A stretch of DNA of 64,000 nucleotides from contig CAVTDR010000006.1 in assembly GCA_963733535.1 (NCBI GenBank), positions 1,505,348 through 1,569,347 on the forward strand. The letters are read 5' to 3'. Position numbers and translations under genes: made by a program. This document shows positions 4,517 through 51,299 of the stretch, in pieces. Numbering within the stretch: position 1 is the first letter of the stretch; each line of letters starts with the position of its first letter. The DNA comes from an uncultured Bacteroidota bacterium (lineage in GTDB: Bacteria; Bacteroidota; Bacteroidia; Bacteroidales; UBA10428). The notes under the pieces were generated by a model. The model was not told the DNA's origin. It ran no database searches and saw only the letters and a program-made list of their open reading frames with translations.

Positions 4517-5679
4517 AACTGAAAGGAATCATACTTAAAAGCCTGCGGGAACAAGTACGAAGTTACTGGTTACTGCTGTTATCCTTGATCATGGGCCCTT
4601 TTTTTATTTTTGTGTATTTTCTGATTGTCGAATCGTCAAAAAGCTATTATGACATCACCATTCAGAACAGCGATGCCGGAGCATTCACACAACAAGATAC
4701 GGTGAATCTGGGGGCGCAGCTCATCGACTTTTTTAAGGATAATGAGGAAGCGCATGCCACATTTCCTGTAAGGATAACACAGGTTTTCAGTAAGGAAACA
4801 GCAACCGATGCACTCAACAAAGGCAAATCACATATTTTTATTGAAATTCCTGAAAACTTTACCACTCAACTGCAGGCAATCACAAATGGTGATCCTTCAG
4901 TATCTGCAAGGGTTCATTTTACAGGCGATCTTACCAATACCAATTACCTGATCAGCGCAGTATGGGCAAATGAACTATTGCTGGATTTTACCTTGAAACA
5001 TACGCATAACAAAAGGCTGATATTTGTGGAGGAAACGGCACTGGGATCCTCCGGGGAAACCGACACATTTACCCAGGTAGTTCCCGGCATTCTTGTTATT
5101 TCGTTAATTATGCTCATGTTCACTGCAAGTATCGCATTTGTTTCAGAAGTTGAAAATAAAACGATACTCCGGCTGAAGCTCACCCGCATGTCTGCGCTTG
5201 AATATCTTGCAGGAGTGGGTTCTGTGCAACTTCTGGTGGGTATCGTGTCAATGCTGTTAACACTTTTAACCGCCATCGCACTGGGCTTTCAATATCAGGG
5301 TTCATTGGGGATTATGATACTCATAGGCGCATTAACCAGTATTTCAATTATCGCATTTAGTCTGGTTATCAGCGCTTTTACCCGTTCTGCTAATGAGGTG
5401 CTGATCGTTGGTAATTTTCCCATGTTCCTGTTTATGTTTTTTACCGGAGCTGCCTTTCCATTAAAAAGCGAACCCCTGTTCTCACTGGCAGGATATCCGG
5501 TGTCTGTTCAGGGACTCATGACTCCGGTTCATGCAATTTCCGCATTAAATAAAACACTGGTTGTTAATTTGGGTTTTCAGGAAATTATTCCAGAATTGGT
5601 TGCCATAACTGTGCTTACCCTGATTTATTTTTTCATTGGTGCCGTATTTTTTCATTTCAGACATCTGAAATTGAAATAA
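4513..5679 (+). CDS. ABC-2 family transporter permease
   Basis: It has an N-terminal TM, a large extracytoplasmic loop and a C-terminal cluster of TM helices. It is translationally coupled to the ATPase. Confidence 0.8.
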   Translation: MKLKGIILKSLREQVRSYWLLLLSLIMGPFFIFVYFLIVESSKSYYDITIQNSDAGAFTQQDTVNLGAQLIDFFKDNEEAHATFPVRITQVFSKETATDALNKGKSHIFIEIPENFTTQLQAITNGDPSVSARVHFTGDLTNTNYLISAVWANELLLDFTLKHTHNKRLIFVEETALGSSGETDTFTQVVPGILVISLIMLMFTASIAFVSEVENKTILRLKLTRMSALEYLAGVGSVQLLVGIVSMLLTLLTAIALGFQYQGSLGIMILIGALTSISIIAFSLVISAFTRSANEVLIVGNFPMFLFMFFTGAAFPLKSEPLFSLAGYPVSVQGLMTPVHAISALNKTLVVNLGFQEIIPELVAITVLTLIYFFIGAVFFHFRHLKLK

Positions 5680-21798: not shown

Positions 21799-24700
21799 TT
21801 ATTTTGGAATTGTATTATATCTGCCCGTTGCATGCATATATGCTCTTATTTTTATGCGATAACGGGCTTTGGCTTCTGTAAGTGTATCTTTTGCCTGATA
21901 AAGAAGTGTCTGAGCTTCGAGCATATCCGAGATATTGATCATGCCTGACTGAAAATTATCACGGTTGATTTTCAGATTTTCTTGTGCCTGGCCCACTGTT
22001 TCAAGAGCAACATCAATTTCCATCCAGGCTTCATTCAGTTCATTCCATTCTTTTTCGATTTTCAGTACCAGCAATTCAGTATTATTTTTGCAGTTGTTGC
22101 TGACGATTTCCTCTTTGAGTTTTCGTTCTTTGATTGAATGTAACCCTTCCCACCAGTCAGATATTGGTATTGATACCGTGCCAAAGACCATACTGTTGGT
22201 TGTTCCTTTATCTGCGATATTATAATAGAGGGCTCCAACTCCAATTCCTGCTTCAGGCATGTATTCTCCGGTTTTAATACGTGTTCGTAATTTTTCAGCC
22301 TGGACACTCGTTTGCAACAACTTGTATTCTTCCAGATTATCAATGGCATTTGAGGCAGCAATATAGAAATCTCCAGGCTGTTTTTCAATCATCAGTGAAT
22401 CGGTGCATACCATGGTACTGTCATACGGAATTCCCATAAATTGACAAAAAGCCATGGAAGACAAGCGGATGCCATTTTCAAGTTTCAATTGATTACTTTT
22501 TATCTCACTCTTTTTCAAGGTAACCCTGAGAACTTCGTTCCGGTTAATAAGTCCTGCTTTCCATGCATCGAAAGCTTCATTATATATGCTGTCCAATAAT
22601 TGCATGGATACTGCCATCGTTTGCCGCTTTTCATAAAGTGACACGATCCTCCAGTATTGCTCTTCAGTATTGAGAACGATCTGATTTTCCGAAAGAATGC
22701 GTTGACTTTCGCTTGCATTTACACCAAGCCCTGCAAGTTTATTTCCGCTCATGATTCTTCCTCCGGCAAAAACAGGTTGCACCGCGGTGATCGAGCCTAG
22801 ATTTCCCTTATCAATCATGGATAAAGAAAACCCTGGGAAATAGGCAAATTGTGTTGGATGAAGAAGATTAACCGGATTGCCGTCATATACCGGCAGATTT
22901 CCACCTGGAATATCCAGCTTTACAAGAGGTTCATTAAAGCGATATATAATTCCGGTAGCAGTGATTGAAGGAAAGTACTTTGTAAATGCAGCTTTTTTTA
23001 TTTGACTTGCAGCCTGAACGTCCAACGTGGCGTTCCTCACCTGAATGTTATTGGATAGAGCCAATGATTGGCAGTGTTCCAATGTATAAGCCGGCTGTGC
23101 ATAAATGCCTTCAATGGCACACCCTAAGAATACCATAACGACAATAGTTCGTAAAAGTAAAGCCGATTTTTGAAGACCCGTTCCTTTGATTTTTGAATCA
23201 GCACGTCTGCAAATCATCCAATAGGCAACAGGCAGAATGAGTACCAGTAGAATCATCGAAGACAATGTACCAAAGCAGATTACGGCGCCCATTGGACTCC
23301 ATAGCGGATTTGCATTGACAATCATGGGAATAACACCTACCGATGCAGCTGCAGAAGTCAGGAAAATGGGTCGCATTCTTCTTTTTCCAGCTTCCATTGC
23401 AGCCTCTTTTACACTCAGGTTGTGCTTTTTGCGAATTTCTTCAGCATAATCCAGCATGATAATGCCATTTCTAACGAGGATACCTATCAGACTGACAATA
23501 CCTAAAATGGCTGTAATTCCAAATTCAGCTTTTAATATGATAATTCCCAGAAAGGCACCTAAAAGACTCAGAGATGATGCACTTAGAACAAGAAGGGCGA
23601 GTGCTATTTTTCTGAAATGAAGCAGAAGAATTATGAAAACAATAAATATGGCAATGATCAAGCCTGCAATAATATTTGGAACGTTTTCCTCATCCAATTC
23701 ATAGGATCCTCCATAGGAAATAAGAATATCCGATGGTATCTGCATGTTGTGGACCTTTGCTTCAACTGCGGAAAATACTTCCTGTACCTTATACCCGCGT
23801 TCAATATCAGCCATAAGGGTAAGCGTATGCATTCCGTTCCTCCGGACAATCTGATCTTGTGTCCAATCTGCCGATACAGTGGCTATTTGACGCAAAGGCA
23901 CAGATATACCCGGAATAAGTGAATGAATATATTCATCATAGATATTCTGGTCGTTTTCTTCAGATTCGGTTTTCAACACAACACTTAGCGGATAATCATT
24001 TTCCCACATGGTAGTAACCGGCAAGCCCTCATAACGGATGGCCAGATTTGTGGCCACTGATGTTTTATTGATTCCTAACCGGCTGGCTTCAGTAGCATTC
24101 AAATTTATTCTGAGAGATGGCTGCATTTCACCAAAGTCACTCCTTACCCAATCAATTCCTTTTATATGCTGTAATTGAGGAAGCAAAGAATCACTGATGA
24201 TCTTGAGCGATTTCAATGAATCACATGAAATTCTGACCTCAATAGGAGCAGCTATCGGCTGGTAATCAAGTTCTTTAAATCGTATATGGGCATTCGGAAA
24301 ATAGTCACCATAGATTTTTGAATAATCATCCAGCAAATCAACCGTTGCTGATTCCGAAATGGTATTTACAATAAACTGGGCATAATTTTTAGACGGGACT
24401 TTGGGGGCATAGGTAGTATGGAAACGGGGTGAGCTTGTTCCCACAAAAGAAGTAATGGATGTGATGCGCGGATCTTCTGATAACATGTGTTGCAGACTAT
24501 CTGAAACCAGCGCTGTGCTTTTAAGTGAACTGCCCTGGGGTAGATAAATTTCAATGGCAAATTGATTGCGTTCAGCTACAGGCAATAACCGCTGCGGAAC
24601 TTTAAAAAACAAGGCAATAGCACATAAAACAGAAAATAGTCCGATGCCGATCGTAAACCGTGGATAGGCAAATGCTTTAAGCAAATACTTTTCATAAAGA

Positions 24701-26253
24701 TTCTGAATGGAATTTAATACGTTAAAATGGTTTTTAATTTTCTTTTCAGCATTCAAGTACCCTTTTTTGATAAAATAATATTGCATAAAGGGAATAACCA
24801 TCATGGCAACGAGCAATGAAATTCCAAGTGTAAGCGTTACCGTCCATGGAAACATTTCCACAAAATCTTTAAATGTACCTTTCAGTGTGAAAAGAAAGGG
24901 TAGAAATGTGATGCTGATTGCCAGGGTAGCGGAAAATATGGCTTTAAAGTATATTCTGGCACTGGATATGGCAGCATACCAACGGGAAACACCCTGATCC
25001 AGCTTTTCCATATAACTATCTACGATGACTATGGAGTTATCAACGATCATTCCGAGCACTACAATCAAAGCCGCCAATGTCACAGTATTCAGTTCAATAC
25101 CGATAACATACATCAGTCCGAGAGAAATAAATATCGTAACCGGAATAGAAGAAGCAGCCACTGATGCTACACGTAGTGGTAGAAGCAACATGGTAACAAC
25201 AATTACAGAAAGAATGGCAAAGAAAAGTTCAAGCATAAAACCTGATACCGCATTTTTAACAACAAAAGGCTGATCGGCAATCCGCTTTATGGTAATGCCT
25301 TCAGGAAGCGACTTTTTAAAATCATTAAGTACTTCATTAACTTCTTCCCCGAATTGTACAATGTTATTGCCTTCCAACATTTCCATTGATATGAGCAGGC
25401 ATTTATGGGCATTGTTTTGTATGTAACTATCGGGGTCGGGATATTCTCTGATCACCGTGGCAATATCTTTCACACGCACCATGTTCCCCAAAGGGTCGGA
25501 ATAAATAATTTGTTCTGCCAGATCATCCTGGGTCTTATAGGGCGTGGTGATAATAACCGGAGATTCAATAGCGCCATAATCTACAGAAGCTCCGGCAGTT
25601 GTAAGCCCTTGTGCAAACAGGCCCGCCGTAATGATGGTGCTATTGAGACTATATTTCTCTAATTTTGCCTTGTCCAGGCAGATACTAATTTGCTCATGTT
25701 GCAGGCCAAAATGTCTGACTTTCGAAACCGATTCAATCCTCCTTAACCGGTCTTCAAGGCGGTATAAATAGGTTTCAAGATCGCGGTATGACATGTGATC
25801 CGCCTCCAATGAAATAAGCAATGCTGAAGTGTCTCCAAAATCATTGTCGGCATATAAAGCCAGGACTCCGGCAGGCAATTTGGACTTAAAGGTAATCAGA
25901 CCATGTTTTAACTTCGACCAAAATTCATCAGCATTCTTTACCTTATCATTCAATTCTACAAAAATGATCATCAAACCATTTTTGGAATAGGAGTAGGTTT
26001 TCTTTTTATTGATTTCTTTAAAGCTGAATAAATAGCGTTCGACTTCAGTGGTCAGTTGTTCATCGATCTGGTTTGAAGTTGCCCCGGGATATGCCGCTAT
26101 AACAAGTCCCTGTCGAATAGTAACGGTAGGGAACTCCTGACGCGGCATTTTCTTAAGCGCAAAGAAACCGAGGATAACCAGAAACACAACACTTAAAAAG
26201 ACAATCTGCCTGTTTTTCATAGCAGATTCTACAAAGGAAATTTTTTTACTCAT
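21799..26253 (-). CDS. RND efflux permease fused in-frame to a TolC-like outer-membrane factor (1484 aa)
   Basis: The frame is a single uninterrupted ORF. Residues 1 to about 1012 form a full AcrB-type architecture ending with TM12 (...GTLSSMILLVLILPVAYWMI). Residues 1013-1052 are signal-peptide-like. Residues 1053-1484 form a full TolC/OEP protein (QPAYTLEHCQSLALSNNIQVRNA...). The 5' end overlaps the MFP gene by 4 nt. Confidence 0.85.
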   Translation of the reverse strand: MSKKISFVESAMKNRQIVFLSVVFLVILGFFALKKMPRQEFPTVTIRQGLVIAAYPGATSNQIDEQLTTEVERYLFSFKEINKKKTYSYSKNGLMIIFVELNDKVKNADEFWSKLKHGLITFKSKLPAGVLALYADNDFGDTSALLISLEADHMSYRDLETYLYRLEDRLRRIESVSKVRHFGLQHEQISICLDKAKLEKYSLNSTIITAGLFAQGLTTAGASVDYGAIESPVIITTPYKTQDDLAEQIIYSDPLGNMVRVKDIATVIREYPDPDSYIQNNAHKCLLISMEMLEGNNIVQFGEEVNEVLNDFKKSLPEGITIKRIADQPFVVKNAVSGFMLELFFAILSVIVVTMLLLPLRVASVAASSIPVTIFISLGLMYVIGIELNTVTLAALIVVLGMIVDNSIVIVDSYMEKLDQGVSRWYAAISSARIYFKAIFSATLAISITFLPFLFTLKGTFKDFVEMFPWTVTLTLGISLLVAMMVIPFMQYYFIKKGYLNAEKKIKNHFNVLNSIQNLYEKYLLKAFAYPRFTIGIGLFSVLCAIALFFKVPQRLLPVAERNQFAIEIYLPQGSSLKSTALVSDSLQHMLSEDPRITSITSFVGTSSPRFHTTYAPKVPSKNYAQFIVNTISESATVDLLDDYSKIYGDYFPNAHIRFKELDYQPIAAPIEVRISCDSLKSLKIISDSLLPQLQHIKGIDWVRSDFGEMQPSLRINLNATEASRLGINKTSVATNLAIRYEGLPVTTMWENDYPLSVVLKTESEENDQNIYDEYIHSLIPGISVPLRQIATVSADWTQDQIVRRNGMHTLTLMADIERGYKVQEVFSAVEAKVHNMQIPSDILISYGGSYELDEENVPNIIAGLIIAIFIVFIILLLHFRKIALALLVLSASSLSLLGAFLGIIILKAEFGITAILGIVSLIGILVRNGIIMLDYAEEIRKKHNLSVKEAAMEAGKRRMRPIFLTSAAASVGVIPMIVNANPLWSPMGAVICFGTLSSMILLVLILPVAYWMICRRADSKIKGTGLQKSALLLRTIVVMVFLGCAIEGIYAQPAYTLEHCQSLALSNNIQVRNATLDVQAASQIKKAAFTKYFPSITATGIIYRFNEPLVKLDIPGGNLPVYDGNPVNLLHPTQFAYFPGFSLSMIDKGNLGSITAVQPVFAGGRIMSGNKLAGLGVNASESQRILSENQIVLNTEEQYWRIVSLYEKRQTMAVSMQLLDSIYNEAFDAWKAGLINRNEVLRVTLKKSEIKSNQLKLENGIRLSSMAFCQFMGIPYDSTMVCTDSLMIEKQPGDFYIAASNAIDNLEEYKLLQTSVQAEKLRTRIKTGEYMPEAGIGVGALYYNIADKGTTNSMVFGTVSIPISDWWEGLHSIKERKLKEEIVSNNCKNNTELLVLKIEKEWNELNEAWMEIDVALETVGQAQENLKINRDNFQSGMINISDMLEAQTLLYQAKDTLTEAKARYRIKIRAYMHATGRYNTIPK

Positions 26254-28036: not shown

Positions 28037-28621
28037 TTATTTCTTCATAATGCCGTAAAAAAGAACATTTAACAGGCTTTCCAATTGATTTTCAGCATAT
28101 TTTCTTTTGCTTGACCAGAACATGGGGACTTCTATTCCTTTCAGGGCAGTAAAAATGGCAATAGCAGCAAGTTCTGTATCCTCAATACGAAAATCGCCCA
28201 ATGCAACACCTTCATCCAGAATATCCTGGAGCATGTGAATTTCTTTCAGATCGTATTTGTTCCTGATTTTCTCAATAAAATCAAAGTGACTATAGGCTTC
28301 CGACTGGATTACAGAATAGAAATTGGAAACCTTTCTGAAGGTTTTCATGCGGGTTAGCACATAGGCTTTCAATTTATCAGCAGAATTATTAAGCCGGGAC
28401 AACGCCTTAATTACCTCCTGACGTAAAAATTCAGCTTCAAATTCTAGTACAGCCTGATAAATTTCTTCTTTGCTTTTGAAATAATAATAGATAGAACTTT
28501 TCCCTTTGCCGAGCGATTGGGCAATTTCGTCCATGGTAGCCTTTTTATAGCCAAACTTATCGAAAATGCTTCGGGAAGCTTCGATAATCTGATCTCTTAT
28601 ATCGTTTTTATCAACGGACAT
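28037..28621 (-). CDS. TetR/AcrR family transcriptional regulator
   Basis: The N-terminal HTH is IIEASRSIFDKFGYKKATMDEIAQSLGKGKSSIYYYFKSKEEI. It is the first gene of the efflux operon. Confidence 0.85.
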   Translation of the reverse strand: MSVDKNDIRDQIIEASRSIFDKFGYKKATMDEIAQSLGKGKSSIYYYFKSKEEIYQAVLEFEAEFLRQEVIKALSRLNNSADKLKAYVLTRMKTFRKVSNFYSVIQSEAYSHFDFIEKIRNKYDLKEIHMLQDILDEGVALGDFRIEDTELAAIAIFTALKGIEVPMFWSSKRKYAENQLESLLNVLFYGIMKK

Positions 28622-28638
28622 TTATCTATTCGACTAAA

Positions 28639-28661
28639 ATACTTTAACGGTCCAAAAGTAT
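28639..28661 (-). promoter_or_regulatory. Candidate promoter -7 box overlapped by an inverted repeat (possible TetR operator)
   Basis: On the minus strand, TACTTTTG (plus 28653-28660) fits TAnnTTTG and lies 32 nt upstream of the TetR ATG. The inverted repeat ATACTTT-N9-AAAGTAT (28639-28661) spans it. Confidence 0.4.
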
Positions 28662-28743
28662 AAACAATTTTTCACTCAACAAAGTATTTCATAAAATATT
28701 TTTCGTATGATCGAATTAATTGTTCGAAAAGTACACTGACTGC

Positions 28744-28799
28744 TGATTGGTGATTGGTATTCGGTATTCGGTATTCGGTATTCGATATTCGGTGTTTGG
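28744..28799. repeat. Tandem heptanucleotide array, 8 units (TGATTGG x2, TATTCGG x3, TATTCGA, TATTCGG, TGTTTGG)
   Basis: I read the units directly. They start at 28744, 28751, 28758, 28765, 28772, 28779, 28786 and 28793. Confidence 0.95.
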
Positions 28800-28820
28800 T
28801 TCCTTTTTGACATTTACCAT

Positions 28821-28903
28821 ACCGTTTACTGATTACCGTTTACTGATTACCGTTTACTGATTACCGTTTACTGATTACCGTTTACTGATTACTGATTACT
28901 GAT
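28821..28903. repeat. Tandem 14-mer array (ACCGTTTACTGATT x5) followed by two extra ACTGAT(T) half-units
   Basis: I read five perfect 14-nt copies at 28821-28890, then ACTGATT (28891-28897) and ACTGAT (28898-28903). The array starts 23 nt downstream of the GT9 gene stop on the minus strand. Confidence 0.95.
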
Positions 28904-28926
28904 GGCTGCCTGCTGCTCGCCGACCG

Positions 28927-29916
28927 CTATGGCTCCATCAATCCTGATTTCTTCAGTATATCATCAATGCTGATTTCGGAACATTTAAAATGGTGCAATG
29001 GACATTCTCTTTTACCATGCAATCCACATGGCCTGCATTCTAATTTCTCCGAAGTTTCCAGAATGATACCGGAATCTGATAACGGGCCAAAACCAAATTC
29101 CCGCACAGTGGAACAGAATATAACGCCAACCGGAGCATTTGCGGCAGAAGCAAAATGTGCAGGAGCTGAGTCGTTGGTAAATGTAAATTTTGCATGTTTA
29201 ATTAAGGCAACGGATTGCAAAAAGCTGAGTTTTCCGGCCGATACAATTACACCTTCCCTATTGGTCCTTGCCTGAATTGACTCACACAAGGGCACATCTT
29301 CCGGTCCTCCGATCAGATGAATTTTGTAGGAACCGGGAATCCTGGAAATCAGAGCACACCAATTTTCAACGGGCCACATTTTGGTAAACCAGGTAGATGC
29401 CGGAGCCATGCAAATATATTCATAACCTGCAGGCACCGTTTCTTCATCTTTATCGGAAGGATACAACCGGGGCCTTACAAAAGTTGAATCGGTGATATGT
29501 TCTATCAGCCGGATATTTCTTTCCACTTCATGTACCAGATGATCTTTGGAGATCACATGCTTTACCTTCCGGGTATAAAACATCGAAAGGGGGTTTTTAT
29601 CGAATCCGATCTTTACTTTTCCTTTGGAAAAACAGGTGATCAGACCGGTAGTAATAAAGCGGTGTACATTAATTACATAATCATAAGATTGCGCACGGAT
29701 ATTTCGAATCAGAGGAATCAGATTCCTGATTTTTCTTTTTTTATCAAAGATCAAAACCGTATGAACATGGGGGTGTCCATCGAACAGGGATTGATTGCCT
29801 TTACGAACCAGCACGTCAATACGGCATTCCGGATAGCGGATTTTCAGTTTCTCAATAAGGGGAGTAACTAAAACCACATCCCCCACAAAAGCGGTTTGTA
29901 TAATAAGTATTTTCAT
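28927..29916 (-). CDS. Glycosyltransferase family 9 (heptosyltransferase-like) protein
   Basis: The tracked ORF is 28927..30033. The likely start is MKILIIQTAFVGDVVLVTPLIEKLK at 29916. The GT9 N-terminal motif and the C-terminal ...NDSAPAHFASA block support the call. Confidence 0.8.
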   Translation of the reverse strand: MKILIIQTAFVGDVVLVTPLIEKLKIRYPECRIDVLVRKGNQSLFDGHPHVHTVLIFDKKRKIRNLIPLIRNIRAQSYDYVINVHRFITTGLITCFSKGKVKIGFDKNPLSMFYTRKVKHVISKDHLVHEVERNIRLIEHITDSTFVRPRLYPSDKDEETVPAGYEYICMAPASTWFTKMWPVENWCALISRIPGSYKIHLIGGPEDVPLCESIQARTNREGVIVSAGKLSFLQSVALIKHAKFTFTNDSAPAHFASAANAPVGVIFCSTVREFGFGPLSDSGIILETSEKLECRPCGLHGKRECPLHHFKCSEISIDDILKKSGLMEP

Positions 29917-30068
29917 GGGAAATACGAACCTCGTTTTTAAGCGACTAAAGATACTTCCTACTGTAATCAATTCAATCAATTCGCGTGATTTTTTTAAACA
30001 GGTGGGTACGAAAGAACAATATCCCGGATTCACGAATTCCGGAATGACAAATTCTGATTTGCTTTTTA

Positions 30069-30076
30069 TACATTTG
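30069..30076 (+). promoter_or_regulatory. Candidate -7 promoter box (TAnnTTTG)
   Basis: TACATTTG lies 65 nt upstream of the aldolase-like gene ATG (30141). Confidence 0.35.
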
Positions 30077-30140
30077 GCATATTGATTTCAGGTTATAAAC
30101 TGCCTAAATATTTTCCCCAACTCCTTGATGGAATTAAAGT

Positions 30141-50642: not shown

Positions 50643-51299
50643 TTATTTCTTCTGTTCAGCCGGAGCACCTGCAGCCGGAGCAGCACCTGCAGCGGGAGCA
50701 GCAGCACCTTCAGCCGGAGTAGCGCCTTCAGTTGCCTCACCCATACCTTTAGAGGCAGCACGGGCAGAGATAACGCCAACAACAAGAGAGCGGGCAGGTT
50801 CGAGAATTTCTACTGAATCATATGTCAAATCACTGGTTAATACTGCACCACCAATATCCAGATCACTGATGTCGATAACCAATTCATCGGGGAGTTTATT
50901 GATCAGCCCTTTTACTTTAATATATCTTTTTCTTTGTCTGAGTTTTCCTCCAGCACGGATACCTACTGAATTCCCTGTGATTTCAACAGGAAGGTCAATG
51001 ATAATCGGTTTTTTCGGATCTACTTCAATAAAATCAATATGGTTAATAATGTCGGATACCGGATGAAACTGAATTTCTTTCATCACAGCAATATGACTGT
51101 TTCCGTCAATGTTCAAATTAACTGCATATACATGCTGTGTGTAAACCAAATCTTTAAATGCACGCTCTTCAGCAGAAAAATGAATGGTTTCCTTACCACC
51201 GTAAAGTACGCAGGGTACCAATTTATTTCTTCTCAGGTTTTTGGAGTCTTTTTTCCCTGTTGCTTGTCTCAGGGAGGCTTTTAATTCAAAAGTTTTCAT
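50643..51299 (-). CDS. rplY: 50S ribosomal protein L25/general stress protein Ctc, with Ala/Pro/Gly-rich C-terminal tail
   Basis: It has the Ctc-type two-domain L25 layout (LRRNKLVPCVLYGG...). The tail reads GEATEGATPAEGAAAPAAGAAPAAGAPAEQKK. Confidence 0.9.
   Translation of the reverse strand: MKTFELKASLRQATGKKDSKNLRRNKLVPCVLYGGKETIHFSAEERAFKDLVYTQHVYAVNLNIDGNSHIAVMKEIQFHPVSDIINHIDFIEVDPKKPIIIDLPVEITGNSVGIRAGGKLRQRKRYIKVKGLINKLPDELVIDISDLDIGGAVLTSDLTYDSVEILEPARSLVVGVISARAASKGMGEATEGATPAEGAAAPAAGAAPAAGAPAEQKK

Follow-up and report, generated by a model that had tools for sequence, protein, structure and literature searches.

What kind of element is the block of short tandem repeats that lies between the GT9 (heptosyltransferase-family) gene and the TetR/efflux operon of an uncultured Bacteroidota bacterium (assembly GCA_963733535.1, contig CAVTDR010000006.1)? 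The stretch of DNA analysed, referred to here as the window, is 64,000 nucleotides (nt) long; positions are numbered over this whole 64-kb window, and both flanking genes lie on its minus strand. The original prediction, made from the letters alone, described two adjacent arrays at 28744-28903, and direct reading of the sequence finds its unit sequences and coordinates to be right to the base. Judged by its sequence, the block is made up of two convergent heptanucleotide arrays of the STRR / TAACTGA / GGGAATC class, a new example of an oddity of bacterial genomes that has been described and is unexplained. The convergent orientation, the start of the array at the GT9 stop codon and the membership in a described heptanucleotide repeat class are points that the original prediction did not contain. 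As an overall explanation, we consider it likely that the block is a convergent heptamer satellite made by slippage, forming an imperfect hairpin in the 3' untranslated region (3' UTR).

Anatomy of the repeat block

The block and its in-phase extensions consist of the following parts.

28744 to 28799: first array in plus-strand order, eight heptamers, TGATTGG x2, TATTCGG x3, TATTCGA, TATTCGG and TGTTTGG (direct reading of the sequence)
28737 to 28799, plus strand: the same array with its extension (the second array in the sense direction of the genes), forward-type on this strand (TGGTGAT, TGGTATT, CGGTATT and so on), of the form YGGTRTT
28800 to 28820: spacer of 21 nt, non-repeat, the loop between both arrays (sequence, inverted-repeat and fold analysis)
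28821 to 28890: 14-mer array, five perfect ACCGTTTACTGATT units, followed by ACTGATT and ACTGAT and ending at 28903
28821 to 28903, minus strand: the forward-type (YRGTNNN) array, which reads CAGTAAT x2 and then (CAGTAAA CGGTAAT) x5
28899 to 28926, minus strand: four degenerate in-phase heptamers, CGGTCGG CGAGCAG CAGGCAG CCATCAG, directly 3' of the GT9 stop codon

Both arrays belong to a single repeat family and run in opposite directions, converging on each other. Each 14-mer is made up of two heptamers, CAGTAAA and CGGTAAT. On the gene-sense minus strand, the second array reads as the reverse type, CCAAACA CCGAATA TCGAATA CCGAATA x3 CCAATCA x2, and one further in-phase unit, GCAGTCA in the minus-strand reading, extends it to 28737. 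The distance of 23 nt between the block and the GT9 stop codon had been given correctly, but this "gap" itself keeps the 7-nt phase, which spans the region from the stop codon to 28737. Since the phase is unbroken across the gap, the array effectively starts at the GT9 TAG. The degenerate heptamers next to the stop codon look like an older, decayed part of the array.

The tandem-repeat program TRF reports periods of 7 and 14, with TTACTGA as the period-7 consensus, and scores of 69 for the heptamer array and 154 for the 14-mer array, far above the rest of the window. The observed unit counts were reached by none of 100 dinucleotide shuffles of the window. The predicted 7-nt period and non-coding character of the block are borne out. 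Each unit of the forward array holds a TAA on the minus strand and the array is therefore closed in all frames; stop codons are found in six of six frames of the 14-mer array, as had been claimed for this array only, and in the heptamer array four of the six are open. The statement that nothing else in the 64 kb looks like the block also holds, as the other two-unit matches in the window, at 4562 and 21088, are at chance level (0.75 expected).

Membership in a described class and distribution

The block has the features of heptanucleotide repeats known from other bacteria. Its 7-nt units are arranged head to tail in tandem, it is non-coding and nearer the upstream gene end, its unit sequence is related to those described, the two arrays form a convergent stem-loop pair, and the tract differs between close relatives at the same site. 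It fits the class in every feature except a high copy number per genome, which was judged over the 64 kb of the window only, where there is one locus.

The cyanobacterial STRR are 7-bp intergenic repeats of filamentous cyanobacteria, capable of forming hairpins, of unknown function, with transcript stability or translational coupling as proposed roles (PMC2670836). The block shares the 7-bp tandem intergenic arrangement and the capacity for hairpin formation with them (PMC2670836). In contrast to the block, STRR are highly repeated genome-wide and were described in heterocystous cyanobacteria, and the unit sequences differ. The units CCCCAGT, TTGGTCA and CAACAGT, which Mazel et al. are said to have described in 1990, rotate to CAGTCCC, TGGTCAT and CAGTCAA, fitting YRGTNNN; the CAGTCAA unit occurs at two of the loci from other genomes surveyed below, L090 and L115.

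The intergenic TAACTGA direct repeats were reported from Beggiatoaceae, 15 Cyanobacteria and 5 Bacteroidetes including Gramella, Aequorivita, Elizabethkingia and Paludibacter, a phylogenetic spread that was called "very limited" (MacGregor 2015, PMC4679880). The arrays of Gramella and Aequorivita are long, mixed with other heptamers and missing in close relatives whose gene neighbourhood is the same; one case has a flanking open reading frame (ORF) that differs between relatives, and in Elizabethkingia the contigs of relatives end in the repeats (PMC4679880). The block resembles these repeats in its tandem intergenic heptamers, and TTACTGA of the window agrees with TAACTGA at 6 of 7 positions. 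Further likenesses are the different flanking gene in the one published case, comparable to GT9 versus CM_2 as described below, the absence of arrays in close relatives and the breaking of relatives' contigs in the repeats, as well as the orientation of the TAACTGA type, which on the sense strand faces a downstream start codon. However, the nearest start codon in the window is 122 nt off with a promoter in between, and the window holds a single locus.

In Xanthomonas, 89-93% of the GGGAATC repeats are intergenic, with 70-75 pairs in convergent orientation; their mean distance is 28 nt to the upstream ORF versus 160 nt to the downstream ORF, and few of them occur between divergent ORFs (Rehm et al. 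2015, PMC4692102). At the same sites they differ in length and sequence between Xcc and Xac (PMC4692102). Compared with the Xanthomonas/Nostoc GGGAATC / GGGGAYT repeats, the block is likewise intergenic, arranged as a convergent pair near the upstream gene end and variable between close relatives, and GGTAATC agrees with GGGAATC at 6 of 7 positions. Rarity between divergent genes is a further likeness. The differences are that the GGGAATC units carry G-tracts and form G-quadruplexes in vitro, and that they are present in about 185 copies per genome. No unit of the window contains GGG, and the block does not belong to the G-quadruplex subtype, which has at least four G3 tracts per array.

A search of the whole genome and of related genomes for the units had been suggested as the way to tell a dispersed family from a unique sequence; a scan of other genomes shows the repeat form to be widespread. 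The pattern GGTAATCAG-N5/6-GGTAATCAG, scanned over one genome per species, matched at least 120 loci (L007-L126), compared with a few tens of matches expected by chance over the whole collection by our own estimate; the counts that follow refer to the matches listed. About 35 of 138 pattern matches were set aside as coding GNQ-type repeats or other 14/15-mers (e.g. L034, L086 and L106). Arrays of at least 21 nt (up to 245 nt) number 96. Their unit consensus is C-R-G-T-A-A-T, and the free positions of the pattern are mainly TAATC, TGATC, TATTC or TAAAC. The units of the window are among the commonest in these 96 arrays (CGGTAAT 253 times, CAGTAAT 182, CAGTAAA 30). Carriers are found in the Bacteroidota (Bacteroidales, Rikenellaceae, Saprospiraceae, Cyclobacteriaceae, Daejeonella and others) as well as in Chloroflexota, Planctomycetota, Acidobacteriota, Verrucomicrobiota, Elusimicrobia, WOR-3 and others. 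One cultivable carrier is Daejeonella lutea DSM 22385 (L010, L047 and L055). Because related GGTAATC-type units occur in many more phyla than those reported, the published "very limited" distribution looks too narrow. In a Megablast comparison of the window with the fetched loci, only L001 matched (90% identity), and neither the source genome nor a close relative is among the genome matches listed.

The arrangement of these arrays is strongly polar. A reverse-type array is located within 120 nt downstream of the matched array in 25 cases and upstream in none, and the order in the window is the same. An open frame of at least 100 codons ends inside the array or at most 40 nt before it in 44 of the 96 arrays, and in 22 of those 44 an in-array heptamer supplies the stop codon with its TAA or TGA. 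There is a gene end on at least one side in 22 of the 25 convergent pairs. Period 7 is the commonest TRF period in the L007-L126 stretches (310 of 850 arrays in 851 kb); among the TRF arrays lying over 300 nt away from the matched ones it accounts for 164 of 619, still exceeding periods 6, 8 and 9. The array-bearing tiles of other genomes hold many more such arrays than the window, about one per 9 kb.

This wider pattern may merit a census: one unit form is found in many phyla, all 25 of 25 pairs are convergent, arrays begin at stop codons or supply them, and period 7 is the commonest repeat period in the stretches that bear these arrays. The class has been known since 1990 and is still without a mechanism. 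REP/BIME elements of enterobacteria are imperfect palindromes that stabilize the upstream mRNA; they occur directly behind stop codons, within 3' UTRs and between genes that converge. The block would resemble them, in acting as a 3'-UTR palindrome, only if the hairpin reading discussed below is right. It is not a member of this group, as REP are fixed units of about 35 nt spread by the RAYT transposase, and there is no sequence similarity. A more far-reaching proposal is that the convergent YRGTNNN (GGTAATC-like) arrays are a single cross-phylum gene-end module, seeded at stop codons, strictly polar and hairpin-forming, and kept by a dedicated binding protein or generating activity. We regard this proposal as doubtful. 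If it were true, the module would be a tandem-repeat counterpart of REP, and the copy in the window would be a partly decayed one, serving as an insulator between GT9 and the TetR/efflux operon.

Folding of the tract and its probable origin

The complementary pentamers CGGTA and TACCG noted in the original prediction are present, but they are part of a larger inverted repeat of 33 nt with 73% complementarity that is formed by the two arrays. This inverted repeat, together with the folding of the sense (minus) RNA as a long imperfect hairpin (-33.6 kcal/mol, z = -2.5), supports the alternative pairings that had been envisaged, and the hairpin fits the suggested role as a "3'-UTR or insulator element". 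The corresponding DNA hairpin has -15.2 kcal/mol (z = -1.6). The reverse arm pairs with the forward arm at 69% in the window, compared to a median of 90% in the 24 other convergent pairs among the matches listed, and the loop is 21 nt versus a median of 15 nt in the same pairs. Sense-strand pairing this poor points to selection for the hairpin being weak or absent in this genome.

The hairpin has a long and imperfect stem rich in A+T, and the closest run of T residues, TTTT at 28730-28727, sits 13 nt past the last paired unit. An intrinsic (Rho-independent) terminator was rejected, since there is no short G+C-rich stem directly before a U-tract. A sigma-70 scan of the tract found no promoter. 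The block is neither a canonical terminator nor a part of the promoter.

We propose that replication slippage on 7-nt units would build and remodel the arrays, in line with the idea, cited for the Xanthomonas repeats, that polymerase slippage favours heptamers (PMC4692102). Point mutations would then diversify the units, and the diverged unit pair CAGTAAA and CGGTAAT may have been re-amplified recently as a 14-mer, which would explain the five perfect copies beside decayed in-phase heptamers that reach to the GT9 stop. The GT9 transcript would enter the forward-type array, then the loop and then the reverse-type array, so that its 3' UTR could fold as the hairpin described above. The probable role of this hairpin is that of a 3'-end structure of the GT9 transcript, and it might serve either as a barrier to exonuclease or as a partial block to GT9 read-through into the TetR/efflux operon. 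Any function is probably weak, because the pairing is poorly kept in this genome.

Several points weigh against the proposal of a slippage-made satellite with a 3'-UTR hairpin. Both the sense RNA fold and the DNA hairpin are weak. The antisense (plus) RNA of window 28730-28915 folds much better (-57.6 kcal/mol, z = -5.9, with no shuffle folding equally well), because units that differ by A/G can pair there as G.U but are mismatched as A.C on the sense strand, and this argues against selection on a sense-strand RNA hairpin. A terminator scan of 28700-28930 found no terminator-like site, and no U-tract follows the stem. The window contains one such locus, while in the described families copies are scattered widely over a genome. 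The survey sample is biased by the search pattern, and its ORF calls are crude. It should also be mentioned that we infer the slippage origin and the effect on GT9/TetR expression.

In a neutral alternative, the block is a satellite of slippage by-products tolerated in non-essential intergenic DNA, with no effect on the flanking genes. This alternative has the slippage origin in common with the explanation favoured here but denies a function. The arm pairing of 69%, as against the median of 90% elsewhere, and the folds of DNA and sense RNA near background are what such a satellite would show, relatives do without the arrays, and the GGGAATC repeats are without a regulatory role despite tests (PMC4692102). 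However, neutral slippage alone would hardly produce the 25:0 convergent polarity and the close association with stop codons seen in different phyla. We consider a purely neutral satellite rather unlikely, though it is the alternative that we take most seriously.

The stable antisense fold also raises the idea of a structured plus-strand RNA gene antisense to the GT9-tetR junction, for which the z value of -5.9, unmatched by shuffles, is the supporting observation. Shuffles are nevertheless not a good null model when two repeat arrays are complementary in part. Neither a TAnnTTTG nor a sigma-70-like promoter reads into the block on the plus strand, and the sequence is not conserved in relatives. 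A search of Rfam returned no match at the gathering score and, at E <= 1, only sub-threshold eukaryotic hairpin models, the hairpin match being far below threshold. An RNA gene at this place appears highly improbable. Two further candidates were rejected: a replication origin, as there is no skew turn and nothing origin-like nearby, and a CRISPR array, in which repeats of 23-50 nt alternate with unique spacers of similar length, as the units are contiguous and without spacers.

For the window itself the block is of little consequence. It is a further bacterial heptanucleotide satellite, and its effect on the 3' end of GT9 and on read-through into the efflux operon is probably mild at best.

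Orthologous sites, promoter and neighbouring genes

The features flanking the block are as follows.

28927 to 29916, minus strand: GT9 (heptosyltransferase-family) gene, 329 amino acids (aa), Pfam Glyco_transf_9, E = 3e-27
28699 to 28730, minus strand: boundary segment TTTTCGAACAATT..CGAAAAA, kept in array-bearing relatives (window, L001 and L003 compared)
28653 to 28683, minus strand: promoter of the TetR/efflux operon, with -33 TTTG (28683-28680), a 19-nt spacer and -7 TACTTTTG (28660-28653)
28037 to 28621, minus strand: TetR/AcrR regulator gene, first gene of the operon, Pfam TetR_N, E = 6e-14

The Pfam results confirm the GT9, TetR and efflux identities assigned earlier. The GT9 start was placed at the ATG at 29916 based on the translation and on homologues of 329 aa, with the stop TAG at 28929-28927; a gene with exactly this product is present in an independent assembly, and an exact-protein look-up of the version with a GTG start gave no match. 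In the sense direction, the order is GT9 stop, 14-mer array, spacer, heptamer array, 60 nt, -33 TTTG, -7 TACTTTTG and the tetR ATG, which is 122 nt from the repeat block. The predicted distance of about 85 nt to the TetR promoter agrees with the 83 nt to the -7 box, but the -33 TTTG is nearer, at 60 nt. The TAnnTTTG box, which matches the Bacteroidetes promoter consensus, is common to all six orthologous upstream regions read.

At L133 and L001, GT9 is 91% and TetR 98% identical to the window proteins, GT9 lies upstream, and L001 has about 90% nucleotide identity to the window. After the GT9 stop, L133 reads CGGTCAG CGGTCAG CGAGCAG CGATCAG before the contig ends, and the tetR-side contig of L001 begins exactly at the conserved boundary TTTTCGAACAATT. 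At L134 and L003/L004, where GT9 (81% identical, again upstream) and TetR (90%) are more diverged, heptamers/octamers other than those of the window follow right after the GT9 stop. Their tract contains GTGACAG.., CGGTCAG/CAGTCAG, the 15-mer GGTAATCAGGTAATC x2.6, AAGATTC and TTCAAATT x3, and seven reverse-type octamers (CTCTTCAC-like) precede the same boundary as in the window. No arrays are found at L002 (TetR 88% identical), with a divergently transcribed CM_2 gene upstream, or at L127-L132 (TetR 78% identical), with a divergently transcribed DUF6599 gene upstream. A metagenome scan with the conserved 5'-UTR pattern returned only the contig of L002 and a single distant relative, which lacks arrays.

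Between the HMGL-like gene and tetR, the gene content varies among these genomes, being GT9 in the window, L133 and L134, CM_2 in L002, and CM_2 with DUF362 and DUF6599 in L127-L132 (synteny compared over window 28927-30140, L002 3300-4000 and L127 600-3000). The arrays sit at this synteny breakpoint and, in the relatives compared, are present only where a co-directional gene ends there. As read from these genomes, the tract is hypervariable between species and subject to rapid turnover. The suggested role as a "slipped-strand hypervariable tract" fits the different heptamers at the orthologous sites.

Such variability could also be that of a contingency locus, either phase- or rheostat-variable, at which gain or loss of 7-/14-nt units alters TetR/efflux expression. 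The model case would be hmw1A/hmw2A of Haemophilus influenzae, where the copy number of an upstream 7-bp repeat sets expression. There, however, the repeats are in the promoter/5'-UTR region and population polymorphism was shown, whereas the arrays of the window are outside the core promoter. A contingency repeat would be expected in an ORF, between the -35/-10 equivalents or in the 5' UTR, and the block occupies none of these positions. Perfect tandem copies do lie upstream of a promoter, the tract varies among related genomes, short-read contigs end in both arrays, and phase variation by intergenic simple repeats is the subject of published work (PMC8262952, PMC12721329). On the other hand, the arrays are 60 nt upstream of the -33 element, so core promoter spacing is unaffected by unit changes and a switch of promoter spacing is unlikely; the promoter is also complete and conserved in relatives without arrays, and published heptamer families adjoin genes of all functional classes (PMC4692102). 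The contig break in the 14-mer array says nothing on polymorphism, because an assembler with k = 31 normally breaks at a repeat of about 77 nt. Taken together, a contingency locus is quite improbable.

The same relatives bear on the suggestion that the block is a protein-binding array, with the heptamers/14-mers as iterated sites for the local TetR, another DNA regulator or an RNA-binding protein. Regular direct repeats with a unit core conserved across phyla (matches listed) would suit this role, S1, Csp or CsrA-like proteins were proposed to bind TAACTGA repeats (PMC4679880), and deletion of heptamers near Nostoc recO altered reporter output, changing the action of LexA and NtcA (bioRxiv 10.1101/2022.06.06.494920). 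For the local TetR, the suggestion did not stand: orthologues with 78-88% identity keep the promoter without arrays, those with 78-90% identity have either no arrays upstream or units that are quite different, and the same repeats adjoin unrelated genes in many phyla. A TetR operator or iteron was rejected, the direct repeats being at least 60 nt from the promoter and absent or different beside TetR proteins 78-90% identical. The 7- and 14-nt periods are out of phase with the DNA helix, and a Pfam analysis found no candidate binding-protein gene linked to the locus. We judge a binding array for any of these proteins to be very unlikely.

An assembly artefact had been named as an outcome that would refute the block, as tandem repeats are error-prone in assemblies and the contigs of relatives break there. 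This was not borne out. Two same-strain contigs from an independent short-read assembly (ERR12035931), with identical GT9 and TetR proteins, end inside both arrays; coming from opposite sides, they cover 64 nt and 161 nt of the tract. Arrays are present at the same place in three related genomes, and the architecture is shared with about 96 similar arrays among the matches listed. An artefact is hardly credible.

On the promoter side, the palindrome TTTTCGAACAATT-N5-AATTGTACGAAAA marks the limit of the repeat tract. It is perfect (13 nt) in L003 at 288-318, degenerate in the window and L001, and absent from relatives without arrays. This boundary palindrome (28699 to 28730 in the window) is a candidate operator.

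Downstream of tetR, an OMP beta-barrel gene, a membrane-fusion protein (MFP) gene and a gene for a 1484-aa RND-OMF fusion follow, in an order that is kept in relatives. The fusion, encoded by the ORF at 21799-26253 on the minus strand, consists of a complete RND transporter of the AcrB type at residues 9-1014 and, joined to it in frame, an outer-membrane-factor domain of the OEP/TolC type that ends at residue 1477, with an extra hydrophobic segment at about 1027-1055 between the domains that carries a lipobox-like VFLGC. It is not a frameshift artefact, because relatives share the length of 1484-1486 aa. Elsewhere in the window, TRF reports an 18-nt (GCA/CCTG-rich) tandem repeat at 50657-50731 inside overlapping ORFs, which is probably a coding low-complexity repeat.

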